Of a DNA stretch of 25,111 bases, positions 87-7,933 are shown in pieces (position 1 is the first letter of the stretch; each line of letters begins with the position of its first letter). Position numbers and translations under genes: made by a program. A model generated the notes under the pieces. That model made no database searches. It worked only from the letters and a program-made list of their open reading frames with translations, and was not told the origin of the DNA. Source of the DNA: a virus (taxonomy: Duplodnaviria > Caudoviricetes); IMG/VR virus record IMGVR_UViG_3300030043_000110, positions 1 through 25,111 of that record. One strand, written 5' to 3'.

Positions 87-504
87 CTAGTTGTAAGTAT
101 TGATTGCATGAGCAATGATGGATATTGCTTACAGACTGTATTAATAGAATACTTACTCTAGAGAATATCAACATTTTTCTGCTGGATGACCTAAGATATT
201 AGTGCAGTTTGTTGTTTCGTAAGGCAGGTGATTCAAAGAGTAGATTTCGTTAGTAGTTGTAGTGAGTAAATGTAATGGGTCTCGTAAGTCTGTGAATGCC
301 AGACACGACGTACCAACGCCATTAGGCATGCTCTTGGTAGCTATTTCTTGATGCTACTGACAATTTGATAAACCGCTAGTAGCTAGTGGATTCGCTTTGT
401 AGTTCTCACCTGTCACTGACTGTCACTCATATGACAGGTGAGAGGCGATCCAACTAGCTCCTAGGATTGTGGGCATTCGCAGTGAGTACTCACAACACTA
501 GGAG
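87..504 (+). other. Structured non-coding terminal leader (tandem imperfect hairpins)
   Basis: Hand-folded stems: GTAAGTATT 93-101/AATACTTAC 148-156 with inner TGAGCAAT/ATTGCTTA; TCGT-GTCTG/CAGAC-ACGA at about 282-308; perfect 12-bp TCTCACCTGTCA/TGACAGGTGAGA inside 381-459; CTCCTAG 458-464/CTAGGAG 498-504. Confidence 0.55.
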
Positions 505-510
505 ATTGTT

Positions 511-618
511 ATGGATGATTTTGGTAATGTATTGGAATACACAAGTGCCACATTCGCATTCGCAATTGATGGTCTAACTTATGATTGGATTTATTGGTTG
601 CCACTGTGGGCAGATTGA
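511..618 (+). CDS. Small hypothetical protein (35 aa, MDDFGNVLEY...WIYWLPLWAD)
   Basis: AGGAG RBS at 500-504, ATG 511, TGA 616-618; below the ORF-track cutoff. Confidence 0.55.
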   Translation: MDDFGNVLEYTSATFAFAIDGLTYDWIYWLPLWAD

Positions 619-693
619 GTACTTGTAACTGCGTAATCAGATTGTAAGATTCTATTTTCTTTTTCAACCCCTAGATACTAAATAGGTGCAAAA

Positions 694-1347
694 ATGAGCA
701 ATATTTCAGATCGTCACATTTTCACTACTTACAACTCTAACGGCAAAGATAAATCTACTGCTCTTAGCGGTCAGAGATTAAGTGTGGTGAGATTCAAAAA
801 GGATAAGTCAGGAAGTAAGGCGAAAGATAGTCAGTGCGTATCTGTTCCAGTAACAGTGCTGAGTGCAGAGGACTATGAAGTACTGTCACCGCAGATCTCC
901 CAATGGTTTCATGGTGTACAGGATGAAATCATTCGCGAGGCATGTGTAGCTGATAAGGATGCAGTAACAAGTGAGGAAATCGATGTAGCTGCAGTGAAAT
1001 CCTATTTGGTGCAGCAAGCTGCAGGTGACAGACTTAATGGGGAACAGATCAAATACTGGTTCGATAGTGAACTGCAAGATATGTTACTTCTGGCATTTGC
1101 GGAGAAACTAGGTATCAGTGATGACTGCAGTGAAGAACAGACACAGAAATTGCAACAAATGTGCAATGTATATAGAGACTGCTTTGCAGCACTTGCTGGT
1201 GGAAGAACTGTATTTGCTGCAGATAAGAGAAGTAAATTGGAGAAAGCGCTCGGATTGGTAGATACAAGTGATGGAATTGGAGCTAGATTGATTGCTAAGT
1301 TGCAGGCTATGAAAGAAGTCAGTGTGGAAGAGATGTTAGGTTTGTGA
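694..1347 (+). CDS. Hypothetical early phage protein (217 aa)
   Basis: Long ORF with AGGT RBS; no motif recognised. Confidence 0.8.
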   Translation: MSNISDRHIFTTYNSNGKDKSTALSGQRLSVVRFKKDKSGSKAKDSQCVSVPVTVLSAEDYEVLSPQISQWFHGVQDEIIREACVADKDAVTSEEIDVAAVKSYLVQQAAGDRLNGEQIKYWFDSELQDMLLLAFAEKLGISDDCSEEQTQKLQQMCNVYRDCFAALAGGRTVFAADKRSKLEKALGLVDTSDGIGARLIAKLQAMKEVSVEEMLGL

Positions 1348-1356
1348 GCAATGATT

Positions 1357-1669
1357 AGGGGATAGGGTACCGGGTACACTCCAGTACTTTACCCCCTCCT
1401 CCCCTTACGAACACATTACAGACTTGTAGGCGTATATAAAGTGTAGTTAGTTATGTGCCTTCTAATAGACTTATAACTAACTATATAGGTATATCTTTAA
1501 TTTTTATTTTTTATACCCCCTAAAATATACGCGCAGTGTAGTGCTTTATATATAAGTTAGTTAGGGGGTATAGAAAGTAAGAAGGCATAAAACACAGATA
1601 CTAGATTCACCAATTTGGTGCTTGACGGGGGAGGGGTAAACCGGGTACTATACCCTATCCCCTGTACCC
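1357..1669. repeat. Nested inverted-repeat region with AT-rich core (candidate replication origin)
   Basis: AGGGGATAGGGTA 1357-1369/TACCCTATCCCCT 1651-1663 (perfect 13 bp); TTTACCCC 1388-1395/GGGGTAAA 1633-1640; TATACCCCCTAA 1512-1523/TTAGGGGGTATA 1561-1572; TAGTTAGTTAT 1444-1454/ATAACTAACTA 1473-1483; TGCCTTCT 1456-1463/AGAAGGCA 1580-1587. The origin role is inference. Confidence 0.7.
1622..1651 (+). promoter_or_regulatory. Sigma70-like promoter
   Basis: TTGACG 1622-1627, 18 bp spacer, TACTAT 1646-1651, about 40 bp upstream of ATG 1691. Confidence 0.55.
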
Positions 1670-1690
1670 AAATATCGATTGGTGAAACTA

Positions 1691-2005
1691 ATGAGCGATG
1701 AAAATACGTTAAGACTTAAGCTAACTTCATTTCAAGCTAGAACACTCTACACAATGATTAATGCTAGAGAGTGGGATGAAATTGAAGAAATGACATTAGT
1801 TGGTAGATTGAATAAATCAATTGAGGAATTTCTAATTCTTAAATGCGAATATACACGAGAAACTATTCGTGTTGAAGTTAAGAAACAGTTGACAGATATA
1901 GATTTTGCAGAAATTGAAGCACAAGCAATGCAGTTCGTTATAGATAACGGCGGTAGTATTGATGCTGTAAGTGTTGTTTCCGGTGATTATGATCCATACA
2001 ATTAG
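1691..2005 (+). CDS. Hypothetical protein (104 aa)
   Basis: ORF track 1679..2005; ATG 1691 preferred because GGTGA lies just upstream. Confidence 0.7.
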   Translation: MSDENTLRLKLTSFQARTLYTMINAREWDEIEEMTLVGRLNKSIEEFLILKCEYTRETIRVEVKKQLTDIDFAEIEAQAMQFVIDNGGSIDAVSVVSGDYDPYN

Positions 2006-2057
2006 GTAGTTAAAAGATTCAAATATTCAAAGGTTATTACGATATAAGGAGTTGTAA

Positions 2058-2246
2058 ATGAAACTCATATTAGTTTGTATCATTGTAAGTTGTATTTTAG
2101 CTTCCTTCCAAGGATGTGCATCACCCCAAATGTATATGAATTCAATGATTTATAGCACACAACCTGCACACAACTATGCATACGCGGGCCCATACCAGTT
2201 TCAATCTCACTCAGGAACTGAAACCCACCCAGGAGAAATGAAATGA
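2058..2246 (+). CDS. Putative small lipoprotein (62 aa)
   Basis: AAGGAG RBS; MK followed by a hydrophobic stretch and a lipobox-like FQG-C20. Confidence 0.6.
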   Translation: MKLILVCIIVSCILASFQGCASPQMYMNSMIYSTQPAHNYAYAGPYQFQSHSGTETHPGEMK

Positions 2247-2314
2247 AAACAGTAATCAATGGAATTGCATTTGCAGTCGGTGTAATTGTATTTCTTGCAA
2301 TATTTCACCCATAA
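2243..2314 (+). CDS. Small single-TM peptide (23 aa, MKTVINGIAFAVGVIVFLAIFHP)
   Basis: AGGAG at 2231-2235; ATGA overlap with the upstream stop; hydrophobic. Confidence 0.55.
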   Translation: MKTVINGIAFAVGVIVFLAIFHP

Positions 2315-2379
2315 CACAGCAATTGGTTTTATATCAAACAGCACACATCACATTTCGCATTCCTACAGGAAACCATATC

Positions 2380-3081
<702 letters not shown>

Positions 3082-3087
3082 TTGAAA

Positions 3088-3146
3088 TGTAATAGGTCGA
3101 AATGGTCGTGAGACCATCTAGTTGTTACGCAACTACTGATGAGACC
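3088..3146 (+). ncRNA. Type II hammerhead ribozyme
   Basis: Stem II GGUC 3095-3098/GACC 3143-3146; GAAA 3099-3102; stem III UGGUC-GUGA-GACCA 3103-3116; AUC cleavage triplet, cut after C3118; stem I UAGUUG-UUACG-CAACUA 3119-3135; CUGAUGA 3136-3142; loop I UUACG can pair with UGUAA 3088-3092. Confidence 0.93.
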
Positions 3147-3183
3147 ATTTAATTATACAATGAATCAATTTGGAGATTCTATC

Positions 3184-3309
3184 ATGTGGGATTTTATCAA
3201 CTCAGTATTTGATATGCTAGGTTTTGTATTCTTAGCTGTTATGGGAGCAATCACACTAGGAGGGGTTGTAGCATACTTAGTAGACTTAGGTGACCAGCAT
3301 TGGGATTGA
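3184..3309 (+). CDS. Small membrane protein (41 aa, MWDFINSVFDMLGFVFLAVMGAITLGGVVAYLVDLGDQHWD)
   Basis: GGAG RBS at 3172-3175; long hydrophobic segment; first ORF after the ribozyme. Confidence 0.65.
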   Translation: MWDFINSVFDMLGFVFLAVMGAITLGGVVAYLVDLGDQHWD

Positions 3310-3374
3310 GTGGGGGGAGGGGTTTACAGCTAATCCAACTCCAGTTTTTACCATAAATATGAGAGGTGACCATC

Positions 3375-3509
3375 ATGTTTCACTATGAACATATTTGGCT
3401 TGCAATTGCCTGTATCACAGTTTGTTATTACAAAACAACAGAAGGTAAATTCATTGGGAATTCTACAATGACTACCCATTTGTTTCCTAAATCATTAGTG
3501 TGGTGCTAA
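3375..3509 (+). CDS. Small hypothetical protein (44 aa)
   Basis: GAGGTG RBS, ATG 3375, TAA 3507-3509. Confidence 0.5.
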   Translation: MFHYEHIWLAIACITVCYYKTTEGKFIGNSTMTTHLFPKSLVWC

Positions 3510-3558
3510 AAGATGTCAAAAGATGCTAACAGCTACTCGACAGCTAGGGGAAATCACG

Positions 3559-4107
3559 ATGTCAACAACCATTAAAGATCCTAATAATCCATTGTGCGGA
3601 GCACTGTCAGATTCTACACCTAATCTCACACCAGAAACTACCAAGCAACAAGCTAAACGAAATGTATCTCTCAAATCCAAACTAATTGGATACATTTCTA
3701 GTTTGCATCCAACATATCAATTCAATGTATATGATTTAGCTGCAGAGTTAGGAACTACTAGAGGATCACTCAATCTATATCTACAAGATTTAGTAGCTTC
3801 TAGTCGCATCTATATAGTTCCGACTGGCCACGGTAGTAAGATGTATACATACCAGAAAGCGAAACCACATGCATTGAAACCAGTTACTATTCCAATCTCT
3901 AATCAATCAGATTTGTGGAATACAATGTTTTATTTTTGTGCCCCACCGCCGCCAGCTGAAACTGACTGGTCTGCAATCTTTGCTGGTATTAACCGATGGT
4001 CAGAAATTGTATGGTCAATTTGGGAAGCTAGAAATGCATGTAAGCAACGTGAAACTAGTGGAACTCTAACATCCAGTCTCACAATCATGGCAACAATAGC
4101 AAGATAG
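3559..4107 (+). CDS. Winged helix-turn-helix DNA-binding protein
   Basis: FNVYDLAAELGTTRGSLNLYLQDLVASSRIYIVPTGHGSKMYTY has a wHTH pattern (helix-turn-helix plus beta wing); AGGGG RBS before ATG 3559. Confidence 0.65.
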   Translation: MSTTIKDPNNPLCGALSDSTPNLTPETTKQQAKRNVSLKSKLIGYISSLHPTYQFNVYDLAAELGTTRGSLNLYLQDLVASSRIYIVPTGHGSKMYTYQKAKPHALKPVTIPISNQSDLWNTMFYFCAPPPPAETDWSAIFAGINRWSEIVWSIWEARNACKQRETSGTLTSSLTIMATIAR

Positions 4108-4206
4108 AAAGTGCTTTAAAGGATTGATTAGCAGAGGGTTAGGGAGTGAGATATAGACTACAATATCCTACCCACTGTCTAGATCAGTCCTTTAGCGCAT
4201 TTGCTA
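4097..4206 (+). promoter_or_regulatory. Long intergenic hairpin (possible RNase III site)
   Basis: UAAAGGAUUGAUU 4117-4129/GAUCAGUCCUUUA 4182-4194 (13 bp with G-U), plus further inner and outer pairing (UAGCAA/UUGCUA). Confidence 0.55.
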
Positions 4207-4231
4207 GAAGTTGTTATTTTGGAGAAACGAA

Positions 4232-4384
4232 GTGAACTCGCGCACAATCATCTGGCTGTTTTTTGCTGGTCTTAACTCCATTGTCTTTGGCTTGCTGCTA
4301 GATCAAGGGGTTCACCCTTATGCACAAGCAGTTTTGTTAGGCGGCTTTCTTGGCGCAGCGATCGAGCGGTTGTGTAGTAAATGA
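4232..4384 (+). CDS. Small two-TM membrane protein (50 aa)
   Basis: GGAG RBS at 4221-4224, GTG start; MNSRTIIWLFFAGLNSIVFGLLLDQGVHPYAQAVLLGGFLGAAIERLCSK. Confidence 0.6.
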   Translation: MNSRTIIWLFFAGLNSIVFGLLLDQGVHPYAQAVLLGGFLGAAIERLCSK

Positions 4385-4426
4385 TTCTTTAACAACTAAC
4401 CCAGAAACTCTCAGGAGTTATATACT

Positions 4427-4678
4427 ATGAATTTTATCCATGGCTCAGATAGACGATACGAAACCCGCGAACCTGAATTGATTCATTTCATAACAATAGA
4501 TGATTATGGTAACATTTGTTGTTTGTTAGATTCCCCCTACGATCACATCCACTATAAAGAATATGACTCCAAAGACCCATTTCTGGAAATATGGAATCTA
4601 GCAGATCGATATGCATATTTTTTCACCAGTAAATACTATGCATGCAATATCAAAACTACTGGTATAGATCCTATCTAA
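4427..4678 (+). CDS. Hypothetical protein (83 aa)
   Basis: AGGAG RBS; ORF track. Confidence 0.65.
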   Translation: MNFIHGSDRRYETREPELIHFITIDDYGNICCLLDSPYDHIHYKEYDSKDPFLEIWNLADRYAYFFTSKYYACNIKTTGIDPI

Positions 4679-4688
4679 TAGAGGCAAT

Positions 4689-5708
4689 ATGAAGATACTA
4701 TGTAAGTATTCTAGTATAGAATACGAAGTTTCACATTTTCCATTCTCACTGGAGTCGCGCGAAGTAGCACATCCAGTGTTTTCCATCCCACAATCTAAAC
4801 TGTTAGTTGTAATTTCTCGCCGATGGCCTGAGAAACTAACTCCGATTGATTCCTATCTAGGATTTCTATCCCTCATGCATTCTACAGGGAAAATAGATTG
4901 GAGAGTACCAGCATTTTATGTACCGGCACTAGATTCTACAGTTGCCCAAAATATGGAACTCCTATTACGTACTATAGGAACCATTAACGCAATTACACAC
5001 CCAGCATTTACTTATCCAGGTTTTGTAATGACTCCAGATACTAGAAGTCTACAAACTATAGGTCACTGGATAGCAATTCTAGGTGACTGCATTCGTGGAT
5101 TCCAAGAAGGAAATAAGCGAGCACAGCTACATGATAGAATTGTGCGGCGTGAACAAGCAATGGAGCGGATGATAAAAGATCCATCCAAGAATCCAGCTAA
5201 CTACGCAAATCAACTAGCTGAATGGGCAGCACTAGCTGGTGAGTTTCCAACAGGGTCAGTACCTGTAGACGGTGTACAGATTCCACTGGCAGATTACTGG
5301 AAAGCAATCATTAGGAAAGCAGCACGAGGTGAAGCAGTATTTTCCCTTAATGACACTGATTTGGCTGAACTGATAGAACATTGTGAAGATGCAATACCTC
5401 ATGGTTCTATCTATGCTCATGCATTGATGAATGTGCTTAGGAGCGCGGCTGATAAGAAATCAAATCTTTTAGGACTTGGAGATTTTGATGTTCGATCAGG
5501 TACTTATAGAATCTTGGATGATTCAGACACAGCAGAAAGAGCTAATTTGTTAGCTATGGTAGATTCAGCTCCTGTGGAGAAACCAGTAGAATACAACTAT
5601 CCTTCCAAGATAGCATTCTTGCGGGCTCTATACAAATGGAAAGCTGCACAACAAATTGGGGCTGAGATAGCTGGTGATTCTAGTAAGATTCTATTGGAGA
5701 AACTATAA
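4689..5708 (+). CDS. Hypothetical phage protein (339 aa)
   Basis: Long ORF with GAGG RBS; no motif recognised. Confidence 0.85.
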   Translation: MKILCKYSSIEYEVSHFPFSLESREVAHPVFSIPQSKLLVVISRRWPEKLTPIDSYLGFLSLMHSTGKIDWRVPAFYVPALDSTVAQNMELLLRTIGTINAITHPAFTYPGFVMTPDTRSLQTIGHWIAILGDCIRGFQEGNKRAQLHDRIVRREQAMERMIKDPSKNPANYANQLAEWAALAGEFPTGSVPVDGVQIPLADYWKAIIRKAARGEAVFSLNDTDLAELIEHCEDAIPHGSIYAHALMNVLRSAADKKSNLLGLGDFDVRSGTYRILDDSDTAERANLLAMVDSAPVEKPVEYNYPSKIAFLRALYKWKAAQQIGAEIAGDSSKILLEKL

Positions 5709-6019
5709 TGATTGAACATATTCATAAATTTGGAATTCCCAAATCTACCATGCACCACGCACTAATTAACCGCTTCGAGCTTACACAGGAACAAATAGAG
5801 GCATGTGAAAAATATTACATTCTGCGATGGACTGGAGCACATTTTAAGCATGTAATGCATTCAGGAGTTATACGACACCAAAATACAGAATACTTAGTAG
5901 TGTATAAAGACTGTAAACCAAGTGAGATTGCAACTAGCTCACAACTTTTTATGTCTTTCCGTAAACCAGCGCATGAATTCCACCTGCAAGCATATGTACT
6001 TGTGAGTATTGGATTCTGA
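5708..6019 (+). CDS. Hypothetical protein (103 aa)
   Basis: TAATG coupling with the upstream gene; GGAG RBS. Confidence 0.7.
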   Translation: MIEHIHKFGIPKSTMHHALINRFELTQEQIEACEKYYILRWTGAHFKHVMHSGVIRHQNTEYLVVYKDCKPSEIATSSQLFMSFRKPAHEFHLQAYVLVSIGF

Positions 6020-6061
6020 GTTAGATGCATTTCTTTACCACCTAGTCTCAGCTAAACAGAG

Positions 6062-6122
6062 CAATCTACAATAGATACGATATCGAAATCGCTTGACATG
6101 ATATCGTATCTATGATAGATTG
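6062..6122 (+). promoter_or_regulatory. Sigma70 promoter embedded in a long inverted repeat
   Basis: TTGACA 6093-6098, 17 bp spacer, TGn-TAGATT 6116-6121; perfect 14-bp IR ATAGATACGATATC 6071-6084/GATATCGTATCTAT 6100-6113, plus outer CAATCTA/TAGATTG. Confidence 0.8.
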
Positions 6123-6181
6123 ATTTGTATTATCCACCAAAAACCAATATTTTGTTCCCTACACAGCAGGAGAAATAACCA

Positions 6182-7933
6182 ATGGCAATTGATCATGAAA
6201 AGATACGACAGCTGTTAGCTGCCAGTAGATTGAAGCAAGAGACTAAATCAGTTGTTAGCGACAGTTCCAAAGGAACGAGAATGGAGCGTTTGGAGCTAAC
6301 AGACGTCCAAAAAGCTAATCTAGCAATCAATGGTTGTATTGGAACGGTTGAAGAAATAACTACTCCTAATCACAATGATTGGTCACAATCCATAGACAAA
6401 TATGGCAATGTAATCACCCTAAATGCTGAGCAAATTTCAGCAGTGGAACTGGCGGCTTCTGGCCAGTCTCTAGTTCTAATCGGGGCTGCTGGATCAGGGA
6501 AAACAACAACAAATAGACAAATTAATTCTGCACTCATAGAAACTGGAATCGCTGGAATTATGACTCTAACTGAGCATCGATACTTAGCTGATTCCACTCC
6601 TGGAATTGTGACGGTAGCTTATACTCGACGCGCAGTAGCTAATATGCAACGTTCAGTTTCAGACGACATGAAAGGGAATGTGATTACAATACATAAGCTG
6701 CTAGAATATCAACCAGTTTATGATACTGTAGAGGATGCTGAAACAGGCGAATCTCATACTAAGATGTCTTTTGTAGCTACTAGGAATAGATACAATCCAT
6801 TACCTGCTTCTATCAAATGTATTCAAATTGAAGAAGCATCTATGGTTTCAGTAGAACTATTTCAAGAGATTCTCGATGCGTGTCCACATAATCCGCAGTT
6901 CATTTTCCTTGGTGACATCCAACAATTGCCTCCAGTTTTCGGTTCGGCTATATTGGGATTTAAAATGCTTGAACTCCCAACTATTGAACTAACACAGATT
7001 TATCGGCAAGCTCTAGAATCACCAATCATTAGACTTGCACACAGAATTCTTTCTGGTAATCCAATTCCAGCTACTGAATTCAAAGAATGGAAAATACCCT
7101 CCCAACTAACTATTCATCCTTGGAAAAAGAAACTAGATGCTGATTTAGGTTGTATGATAGCAGCTAAATTCTTTATAGCAGCGATTGATTCAGGCGCTTA
7201 TAGTCCAGATTCGGATATGATCCTATGTCCATTTAATAAGTCTTTCGGGACTGAAGAATTGAATCGACACATAGCTCAGCATTTGTCTAGGCGGCGTAAG
7301 GCAGTTGTGTTTGAAATCATTGCTGGATTTAACAAATTCTATTATTCTGTAGGCGATAAAGTACTTGTGGAAAAAGAAGATGCTATCATTGTTGATATCA
7401 AACGTAATTCAGAATACATGGGGGCGAAACCTGCAACTCCTAGCCCGACGCTAGATTATTGGGGCGCGGAACAAGGAACTGCTCACCATATAGATGATTC
7501 AGAATCTAGTGATGATGATATCGATAGAATGATGGAATTGGCCGCTTCAGATTCTGAAGATCGTGTACGACAATGCTCACATACAATAACAGTACTTATG
7601 CAAGATACTGGTTTAGAGTTACAAATTAAGACTGCTTCAGAAGTGAATGCAATGCTTTTAGGTTACTGTCTTACAGTACACAAATCTCAGGGATCTGAAT
7701 GGAGAAAGGTATTTCTTGTTCTCCATAATACTCATGCAACAATGATTTCCCGTGAACTTATGTACACTGCAGTTACGAGGGCACGAGAAGAACTTTATGT
7801 GATTTGTGAACCAGAAACATTTGTAAAGGGTATTCTAAGTCAGAGAATTAAAGGAAATACACTAGCTGAGAAAGCAGAGTTTTTCAAAGGCAAAGTAGAA
7901 TCTGGTTATCTCTTGGAGAAAGTAAAATCATGA
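6182..7933 (+). CDS. RecD/Dda-like SF1B DNA helicase
   Basis: Motifs GAAGSGKTT (Walker A), IEEASMV (Walker B), GDIQQLPPV, LTQIYRQ, YCLTVHKSQGSEW and LMYTAVTRAR. Confidence 0.93.
   Translation: MAIDHEKIRQLLAASRLKQETKSVVSDSSKGTRMERLELTDVQKANLAINGCIGTVEEITTPNHNDWSQSIDKYGNVITLNAEQISAVELAASGQSLVLIGAAGSGKTTTNRQINSALIETGIAGIMTLTEHRYLADSTPGIVTVAYTRRAVANMQRSVSDDMKGNVITIHKLLEYQPVYDTVEDAETGESHTKMSFVATRNRYNPLPASIKCIQIEEASMVSVELFQEILDACPHNPQFIFLGDIQQLPPVFGSAILGFKMLELPTIELTQIYRQALESPIIRLAHRILSGNPIPATEFKEWKIPSQLTIHPWKKKLDADLGCMIAAKFFIAAIDSGAYSPDSDMILCPFNKSFGTEELNRHIAQHLSRRRKAVVFEIIAGFNKFYYSVGDKVLVEKEDAIIVDIKRNSEYMGAKPATPSPTLDYWGAEQGTAHHIDDSESSDDDIDRMMELAASDSEDRVRQCSHTITVLMQDTGLELQIKTASEVNAMLLGYCLTVHKSQGSEWRKVFLVLHNTHATMISRELMYTAVTRAREELYVICEPETFVKGILSQRIKGNTLAEKAEFFKGKVESGYLLEKVKS

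Follow-up and report, generated by a model that had tools for sequence, protein, structure and literature searches.

Type II hammerhead ribozymes were described in 2011 as common in bacteria, where they often flank prophage genes, and the processing of long phage transcripts was proposed as their role (Perreault et al., PMC3088659). In that report, polycistronic RNA was cut by tandem prophage hammerheads both in vitro and in E. coli, the pseudoknot of the type II fold uses the 3' tail, and a 5' end was mapped near the cut of HHphage, the hammerhead of haloviruses HF1 and HF2. In full-length hammerheads, the U seven nucleotides past the cut forms a trans-Hoogsteen pair with an A of loop II (PMC9217987, PMC6155905). 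The role of hammerheads in phages is described as open (PMC6765202, PMC6155905).

The motif analysed here lies in a 25,111-nucleotide stretch of an uncultured phage (Caudoviricetes; IMG/VR record IMGVR_UViG_3300030043_000110), referred to below as the window. The earlier note, made from the letters alone, had claimed a complete type II hammerhead at 3088-3146, and this was borne out: the segment is a complete, compact type II hammerhead with all core and stem features present, including the three stems and the GUGA loop (Table 1). The hammerhead core was found in full, with C3 U4 G5 A6 N7 G8 A9 at 3136-3142, G12 A13 A14 and A15.1 at 3099-3102, U16.1 at 3117 as the partner of A15.1, and H17 at C3118. 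The core-adjacent pairs G3143-C3098, U3119-A3135 and A3102-U3117 carry no mismatch, and in stem III a U15.2-A16.2 pair replaces the usual C-G. Stems I and III are loop-closed and stem II is open, and only the type II descriptor matched. The AUC triplet and the predicted cut after C3118 likewise agreed with canonical numbering.

Table 1. Coordinates of the hammerhead elements and of the neighbouring genes in the window
Feature	Position	Strand	Remarks
Ala-repeat gene	2380..3081	+	probable start at 2380, preceded by an AGGA motif; frame open from 2323; stop codon 3079-3081
5' flank UGUAA	3088..3092	+	complementary to loop I; with 3093-3095 can make a 7-bp helix with 3122-3128
A 5'-adjacent to stem II	3094	+	putative partner of U3125 in a stem I/stem II tertiary pair
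Stem II, 5' strand	3095..3098	+	pairs with 3143-3146; C11.1 = 3098
Core G12 A13 A14 A15.1	3099..3102	+	GAAA
Stem III hairpin	3103..3116	+	3103-3107/3112-3116 plus A3102-U3117; GUGA tetraloop 3108-3111
AUC triplet	3116..3118	+	C17 = 3118; predicted scissile bond C3118/U3119 by canonical numbering
Stem I (6 bp) and 5-nt loop	3119..3135	+	3119-3124/3130-3135 around UUACG 3125-3129; U3125 = position 1.7
Core C3 U4 G5 A6 U7 G8 A9	3136..3142	+	CUGAUGA
Stem II, 3' strand	3143..3146	+	4-bp stem II; G10.1 = 3143
GGAG motif and 41-aa hydrophobic ORF	3172..3309	+	GGAG 3172-3175; ATG 3184; stop codon ends at 3309

The structure exceeds what chance would give, since none of 300 dinucleotide shuffles matched at the stem lengths of this motif, and loose settings gave 0.02 matches per shuffle (both strands). 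Minimum-energy and centroid folds are both the hammerhead, and the folding energy by itself is weak evidence (z = -2.09, with 10 of 200 shuffles folding equally well). The motif sequence was identical in contigs from all four DNA runs, three of them possibly the window's source, and also in L230 and L232, and assembly error was thus excluded. The region is also present on a 44,049-base contig in two runs, and the 24 holders listed are labelled peat metagenome. As a side observation, stem III repeats stem II sequences (3095-3117 and 3141-3148), and the arms may swap partners; a similar stem III is found in L043, L056 and L038. An 11-bp outer helix between 3076-3086 and 3148-3158 was also considered and was rejected, as 135 of 300 flank shuffles paired as much.

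The motif is solitary. A descriptor covering all three hammerhead topologies found this single site on both strands of the window, and no second or degenerate hammerhead was present there, the next covariance-model match scoring 8.5 bits (E 0.83). No hammerhead was found in the overlapping contig L001 either. A tandem array, that is, at least two ribozymes close to each other, was not seen in the window or L001, which cover all but about 15 kb of the roughly 44-kb genome.

When the window was scanned with Rfam, a check that the earlier note had proposed for the hammerhead models, the expected match was not obtained at gathering score or at E values up to 10. The motif did not reach the gathering threshold of RF02276 (37 bits), and the Rfam matches that appeared by E value in the window were dismissed as the Ala repeat or chance. 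Compared with the type II hammerheads of Perreault et al. (PMC3088659, RF02276), the motif shares the permutation, the core, the intergenic position among small phage genes and the proposed role. However, stem II has 2 bp and loop I is longer in the RF02276 consensus, whereas the window motif has a 4-bp stem II, a 6-bp stem I and a 5-nt loop; its 3' tail offers three pairs for the published pseudoknot, and it is solitary, not tandem (PMC3088659). By every sequence test, the motif is a hammerhead of type II, but it is not RF02276 by score and it does not follow the 3'-pseudoknot consensus.

Relatives of this compact form were numerous. A pattern that fixed only stem II and the core was searched in 12 of the 64 parts of the viral collection and returned 123 viral loci, from which about 640 stretches are estimated for the whole collection. 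There were 130 distinct matches outside the window, of which 124 had the full topology and 6 were dropped. In prokaryotic genomes, a second pattern gave 82 stretches, 77 of them distinct and 73 with the full topology, carried by Acidobacteriota, Paraburkholderia, Synergistota, Gastranaerophilales and others. Two matches, L252 (full topology) and L266, lie in genomes labelled as archaea (Methanobacteriaceae and Thaumarchaeota). The exact pattern of the window's own stems II and III was present in no viral stretch, and blastn of the motif against isolated phages gave only three short chance matches.

An alignment was made of 94 of the 125 motifs, the window among them, chosen for a short stem III and sufficient flank. 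Paired cells make up 99.8% in stem I and 98.4% in stem III, and double changes occur at 6/6 and 5/6 of their pairs, respectively. The 17-nt stem I stem-loop is present in 117 of the 124 relatives. The window shows the features of the subfamily, namely a 4-bp stem II, a 6-bp stem I, a 5-nt loop, U1.7, an A before stem II and an intergenic sense position, and it scores 71.4 bits with the subfamily covariance model, a value that is not independent since the window is one of the 94 training sequences. The subfamily is common and is poorly covered by RF02276, whose gathering score was reached by only 2 of 28 members in 15 loci. In the literature search, which left most subscription journals outside, no paper devoted to this compact subfamily or to its coupling with stop codons was found. 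A term search of the text supplements of PMC3088659 gave no matching alignment rows, and the subfamily may well be included in Figures S4 and S5 of that report or in alignments that are gapped or cut.

The genomic context of the relatives was counted in the 80 that had 400 bases on either side. An upstream stop codon lies within 25 nt in 67/80, and an SD-like motif with a start codon follows within 90 nt in 60/80, compared with 2/80 on the antisense side; the median distance to the SD-led start is 21.5 nt. A mechanical ORF on the same strand contains 11 of the 80, and one on the opposite strand contains 27. The ORF downstream has a median of 86 aa (n = 52). The gap from stop codon to stem II is most commonly 2 nt (22/80) and lies between -1 and 5 nt in 57/80, compared with 13 nt in the window. 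The stop codon thus usually abuts stem II (L013-L135), where a terminating ribosome would cover the first strand of the ribozyme.

At least two such ribozymes occur in 13 of 105 viral loci, and arrays of three to four hammerheads among small genes, over about 2 kb, were observed in L056, L110, L132, L274 and L288. Pairs of this kind could excise a gene-sized RNA, which raises RNA circularisation or cassette mobility as a function. For the locus described here, such a function is extremely unlikely, as the window holds one ribozyme and hence no unit to excise, and Perreault et al. report that no spliced or circular products were detected (PMC3088659).

The earlier note had also read a 5-bp pairing between loop I and UGUAA 3088-3092 as a structural element. 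The complementarity is real, with four Watson-Crick pairs and one GU pair that take in the whole loop, but the relatives do not support the pairing as a working contact. Loop I and 5'-flank cells of the alignment pair in 44.5% of cases, compared with 98-100% for stems III and I, and no loop/flank column pair is enriched among 117 relatives, three of which reach four pairs when aligned in this register. Four or more Watson-Crick pairs to the 5' flank are present in 13/124 relatives, compared with 11.0 in flank-swapped controls, and a 5-bp partner for this loop is expected by chance in 2-3.5% of 10-mers. The 3'-tail pairing of Perreault et al. fared similarly: its best run in the window is three pairs, and at least four occur in 9/124 relatives, compared with 7.0 in swapped controls.

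A different candidate contact was conserved instead. U1.7 together with an A just before stem II, neither of them fixed in the search pattern, is present in 123 of the 124 relatives and corresponds to U3125 and A3094 in the window. The lone exception, L102:293-361 (- strand), has the two bases swapped, with A at 1.7 and U before stem II, possibly a compensatory change and a single event. This conservation suggests that U3125 and A3094 form a stem I/stem II tertiary contact, in agreement with the trans-Hoogsteen pair known from full-length hammerheads (PMC9217987, PMC6155905). A pair of the U1.7-A type is reportedly sufficient alone for fast cleavage, as O'Rourke et al. are said to have found in 2015. 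The type I hammerhead of S. mansoni and the type III hammerhead of sTRSV likewise have U1.7 and an A before position 11.4 of a 4-bp stem II (PMC6155905, PMC9217987); unlike in those ribozymes, the A of the window stands in the open 5' flank and not in a loop, and conservation is what points to the pair.

The conserved pair would need U3125 and therefore compete with the pseudoknot. That the loop I/5'-flank pseudoknot is itself the activating contact, as a mirror of the published 3'-tail version, is a structural model that would fit any role of the ribozyme. In its favour, the complementarity spans the entire loop, the flank continues the would-be loop II strand and so probably lies near loop I, and the fold in long context leaves the flank unpaired in an 8-nt bulge. 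Considering the lack of enriched columns, the low share of pairing cells, its occupation of U3125 and the use of the 3' tail in the published type II version (PMC3088659), we regard this model as rather unlikely; a shortened pseudoknot alongside the U-A pair is possible.

The AUC triplet was found in none of the 124 viral and none of the 73 genomic relatives. A targeted metagenome scan for it gave 16 records; two belong to this phage, and the others comprise 11 distinct cores, each with an A before stem II. AUC favours catalysis, but through pairing with the CUGAU core it can trap the RNA kinetically and slow cleavage during transcription (PMC1636495). The same AUC/CUGAU pairing, which extends stem I, was seen in suboptimal folds of the window, a natural phage type II motif, whereas the ELVd-(+)-AUC ribozyme of that study is an engineered viroid variant (PMC1636495). 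Combined with an 8-bp helix between 3100-3107 and 3143-3150, it gives an inactive fold 0.6 kcal/mol above the active one in the context 3082-3160. The predicted share of the fold with the 8-bp helix varies with the flank included, from P 0.00 to 0.53, and this and the following fold shares are nearest-neighbour predictions that do not count tertiary contacts. The share of the active fold is ordinary, at 0.53, 0.41 and 0.33 compared with medians of 0.53, 0.36 and 0.17 in 120 other relatives. Special attenuation at equilibrium was rejected, as the active fold has the same or a smaller share in 63-76 of the 120 relatives.

A second competing structure is a predicted 7-bp helix between 3089-3095 and 3122-3128, which is nested, contains the pseudoknot pairing and displaces stem I. 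For transcripts that stop at 3135-3142 it dominates, at P 0.60-0.89; it weakens upon completion of stem II and is gone without the flank; an equally strong flank effect is shown by 8 of 123 relatives. Cutting could on this basis be gated by translation. The 5' flank would then act as an anti-ribozyme strand that, together with the rare AUC, traps nascent stem I and loop I and holds the RNA inactive until a ribosome terminating at 3079-3081 masks the flank, and cutting would follow translation of the Ala-repeat gene. In the same transcripts ending at 3135-3142, stem I has P 0.10-0.35 with the flank and 0.99-1.0 without it, with values this low in just 8 of 123 relatives; the distance from stop codon to stem II is 13 nt, roughly one ribosome edge given the size of the ribosome footprint. 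On the other hand, the trap is favoured over the on-path fold by only about 0.3 kcal/mol, stem I recovers once stem II is complete (P 0.63-0.95 at 3146 and 0.98-0.99 at 3160), and a loop partner of this kind can arise by chance, as the 10-mer frequency and the flank-swapped controls above indicate. Gating by the ribosome is unlikely, and if true it would mean that the early mRNA of the phage is cut only after the upstream gene has been read.

The site is intergenic and in the early region, as the earlier note had described it, and lies between two small genes of a plus-strand block. The stop codon of the Ala-repeat gene ends at 3081, 6 nt before 3088, and ATG 3184 sits 65 nt past the predicted cut; a further in-frame ATG at 3160 has no SD-like motif. 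The identifiable genes between 694 and about 19,600 (helicase, exonuclease, polymerase and primase) are all on the plus strand and come after small ORFs of no assigned function. In contig L001, the order is a divergent 526-aa gene, a non-coding gap and then the plus-strand block, and this upstream gene is, from its motifs, presumably the terminase large subunit. From the gene layout, the block can fairly be read as an early plus-strand operon. Long non-coding stretches, at 1348-1678 of the window and 3659-4572 of L001, open the early region; they probably bear promoters, and no Rfam or hammerhead match was found in them. Promoter-like sites stayed at chance level (13 compared with 19.9 by chance), and a terminator scan of 400-6300 on the plus strand, also at chance level, gave stem III itself as the sole terminator-like match. 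Just past the 41-aa ORF, a G-rich imperfect hairpin at 3314-3350 is followed by a short U run (-10.3 kcal/mol), a structure that the terminator scan did not call; should it act as a terminator, cutting would free a single-gene RNA of about 230 nt with a hairpin at either end.

With HHphage of HF1 and HF2, the motif has in common that it is single and lies upstream of a start codon in what would be the early polycistronic region of a lytic phage (PMC3088659). HHphage, however, comes from an archaeal virus, is a structural variant and precedes a helicase gene by 13 nt, whereas the window motif has a canonical core and its next gene is the hydrophobic ORF (PMC3088659). The product of that ORF would probably reside in the membrane, judging by its hydrophobicity, and its 56-aa form matched no PHROG or Pfam family. 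The Ala-repeat gene likewise matched no PHROG or Pfam family, and its relatives are 62-65% identical proteins in other viral contigs (L137-L139) and unnamed viral clusters in a protein atlas. Its protein consists of a conserved N-terminal domain, a long low-complexity Ala tract, which breaks assemblies, and a short conserved C-terminal motif; among named atlas clusters the nearest is Imm5-like, at 0.82, a lead only. The helicase of the phage has its best matches in Polaromonas phage Tiera, EBPR podovirus 3 and Pseudomonas phages 119X, PaMx41 and PaP2 (36-39% identity).

Distribution in the phage group was followed with a 339-aa early protein, the alignment of which gave 103 relatives; 80 loci were kept, and in 51 of them (48 clusters) the interval from terminase to marker is covered. 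No hammerhead was detected in the 80 loci with the covariance model at E values up to 5, and the 51 that span the whole early region all lack the motif; the model is biased towards the stem II sequence of this motif, identity to the relatives is low (35-48%), and other ribozyme classes could have escaped it. A weak type III descriptor match in L158 was taken as chance, as the covariance model did not match it. Tblastn of four flanking early ORFs (1679, Ala-repeat, 3184 and 3523) gave no match in the same 80 loci. Absence from the related loci indicates that the hammerhead is not essential to this phage group; the motif is sporadic and lies in a variable accessory region. Linkage between the Ala-repeat gene and hammerheads is unsupported, as 1 of 219 hammerhead loci (L037) has an Ala-repeat relative. 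In L037, a hammerhead of the same subfamily with the same loop I (2001-2051, - strand) lies directly upstream of that relative, and in the window it lies downstream. No hammerhead was found within 3 kb of the Ala-repeat relatives in L137 and L138, and L139 ends inside the gene.

This sporadic occurrence raises the explanation that the ribozyme is active but incidental, having arrived with an accessory-gene cassette and having no selected role in this phage. The absence of the motif and of its four flanking ORFs from the related loci and the lack of nearby hammerheads in L137 and L138 are in line with such an origin. Nevertheless, all 16 pairs are intact, including the double change to U15.2-A16.2, and stem I is AU-rich like the 39.6% GC genome, compared with a GC-rich stem I in most relatives. 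Intact pairs together with an AU-rich stem I suggest selection on the fold in this lineage, and an incidental presence is therefore held to be unlikely.

The reading we favour, with moderate confidence, is a constitutive co-transcriptional cut at C3118/U3119 that splits the early mRNA for separate stability and translation of the neighbouring accessory genes. The splitting of a polycistronic mRNA had been put forward in the earlier note, is the role that Perreault et al. proposed in 2011 (PMC3088659), and is retained as the likely one. It is supported by a structure beyond chance, the covariation of stems I and III, the conserved U1.7 and A, the sense-strand intergenic context of the family, the all-plus gene block, the ordinary active-fold share and the published cutting by tandem prophage hammerheads (PMC3088659); the AUC trap, the two competing predicted folds, the chance-level promoter-like sites and the absence from related loci count against it. 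In the proposed mechanism, the early transcript would be cut once, without protein, between C3118 and U3119, parting the Ala-repeat gene from the small downstream genes, and fast folding would likely rest on the single U3125-A3094 pair and not on the pseudoknot. On the upstream side, the RNA would finish with the stem III hairpin and carry a 2',3'-cyclic phosphate; the downstream RNA would open with a 5'-OH and the stem I hairpin, at 65 nt from the 41-aa ORF. The type II topology would leave both products with a terminal hairpin, and since they would be joined just by the short stem II and weak AU-rich flank pairing, the cut should be effectively one-way. Separate mRNA stability and translation of adjoining accessory genes would be the likely purpose.

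RNases E, Y and J1 prefer 5'-monophosphate ends, so protection by the 5'-OH end, as put forward in the earlier note, is plausible (PMC10503654). Such stabilisation would depend on the host and its RNA decay pathway. Predicted access to the SD motif and start codon rises modestly after the cut, with the mean unpaired value going from 0.29-0.33 to 0.46. The opposite outcome would be a destabilising cut as in glmS, where cleavage leads to decay by cellular RNases (PMC6765202): the downstream RNA would be passed to host nucleases and the following genes turned down. This is very unlikely here, given the end preference of the RNases (PMC10503654), the base-paired hairpin with which the product would begin, and the usual position of family members about 20 nt before an SD-led start.

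As an intergenic phage hammerhead, the motif is an ordinary fresh example, such elements and the role proposed for them being already known in phages. Alone, it leaves the present picture unchanged, coming from an uncultured phage and being accompanied by hundreds of similar motifs. A useful by-product is the compact subfamily itself, for which RF02276 is a poor model. The closeness of stem II to the stop codon in most of its members makes a coupling between termination and self-cleavage directly testable. Being small, solitary and clean, the motif is suited to a reporter test of mRNA splitting, of the type II U1.7-A contact and of the co-transcriptional behaviour of a natural AUC hammerhead.
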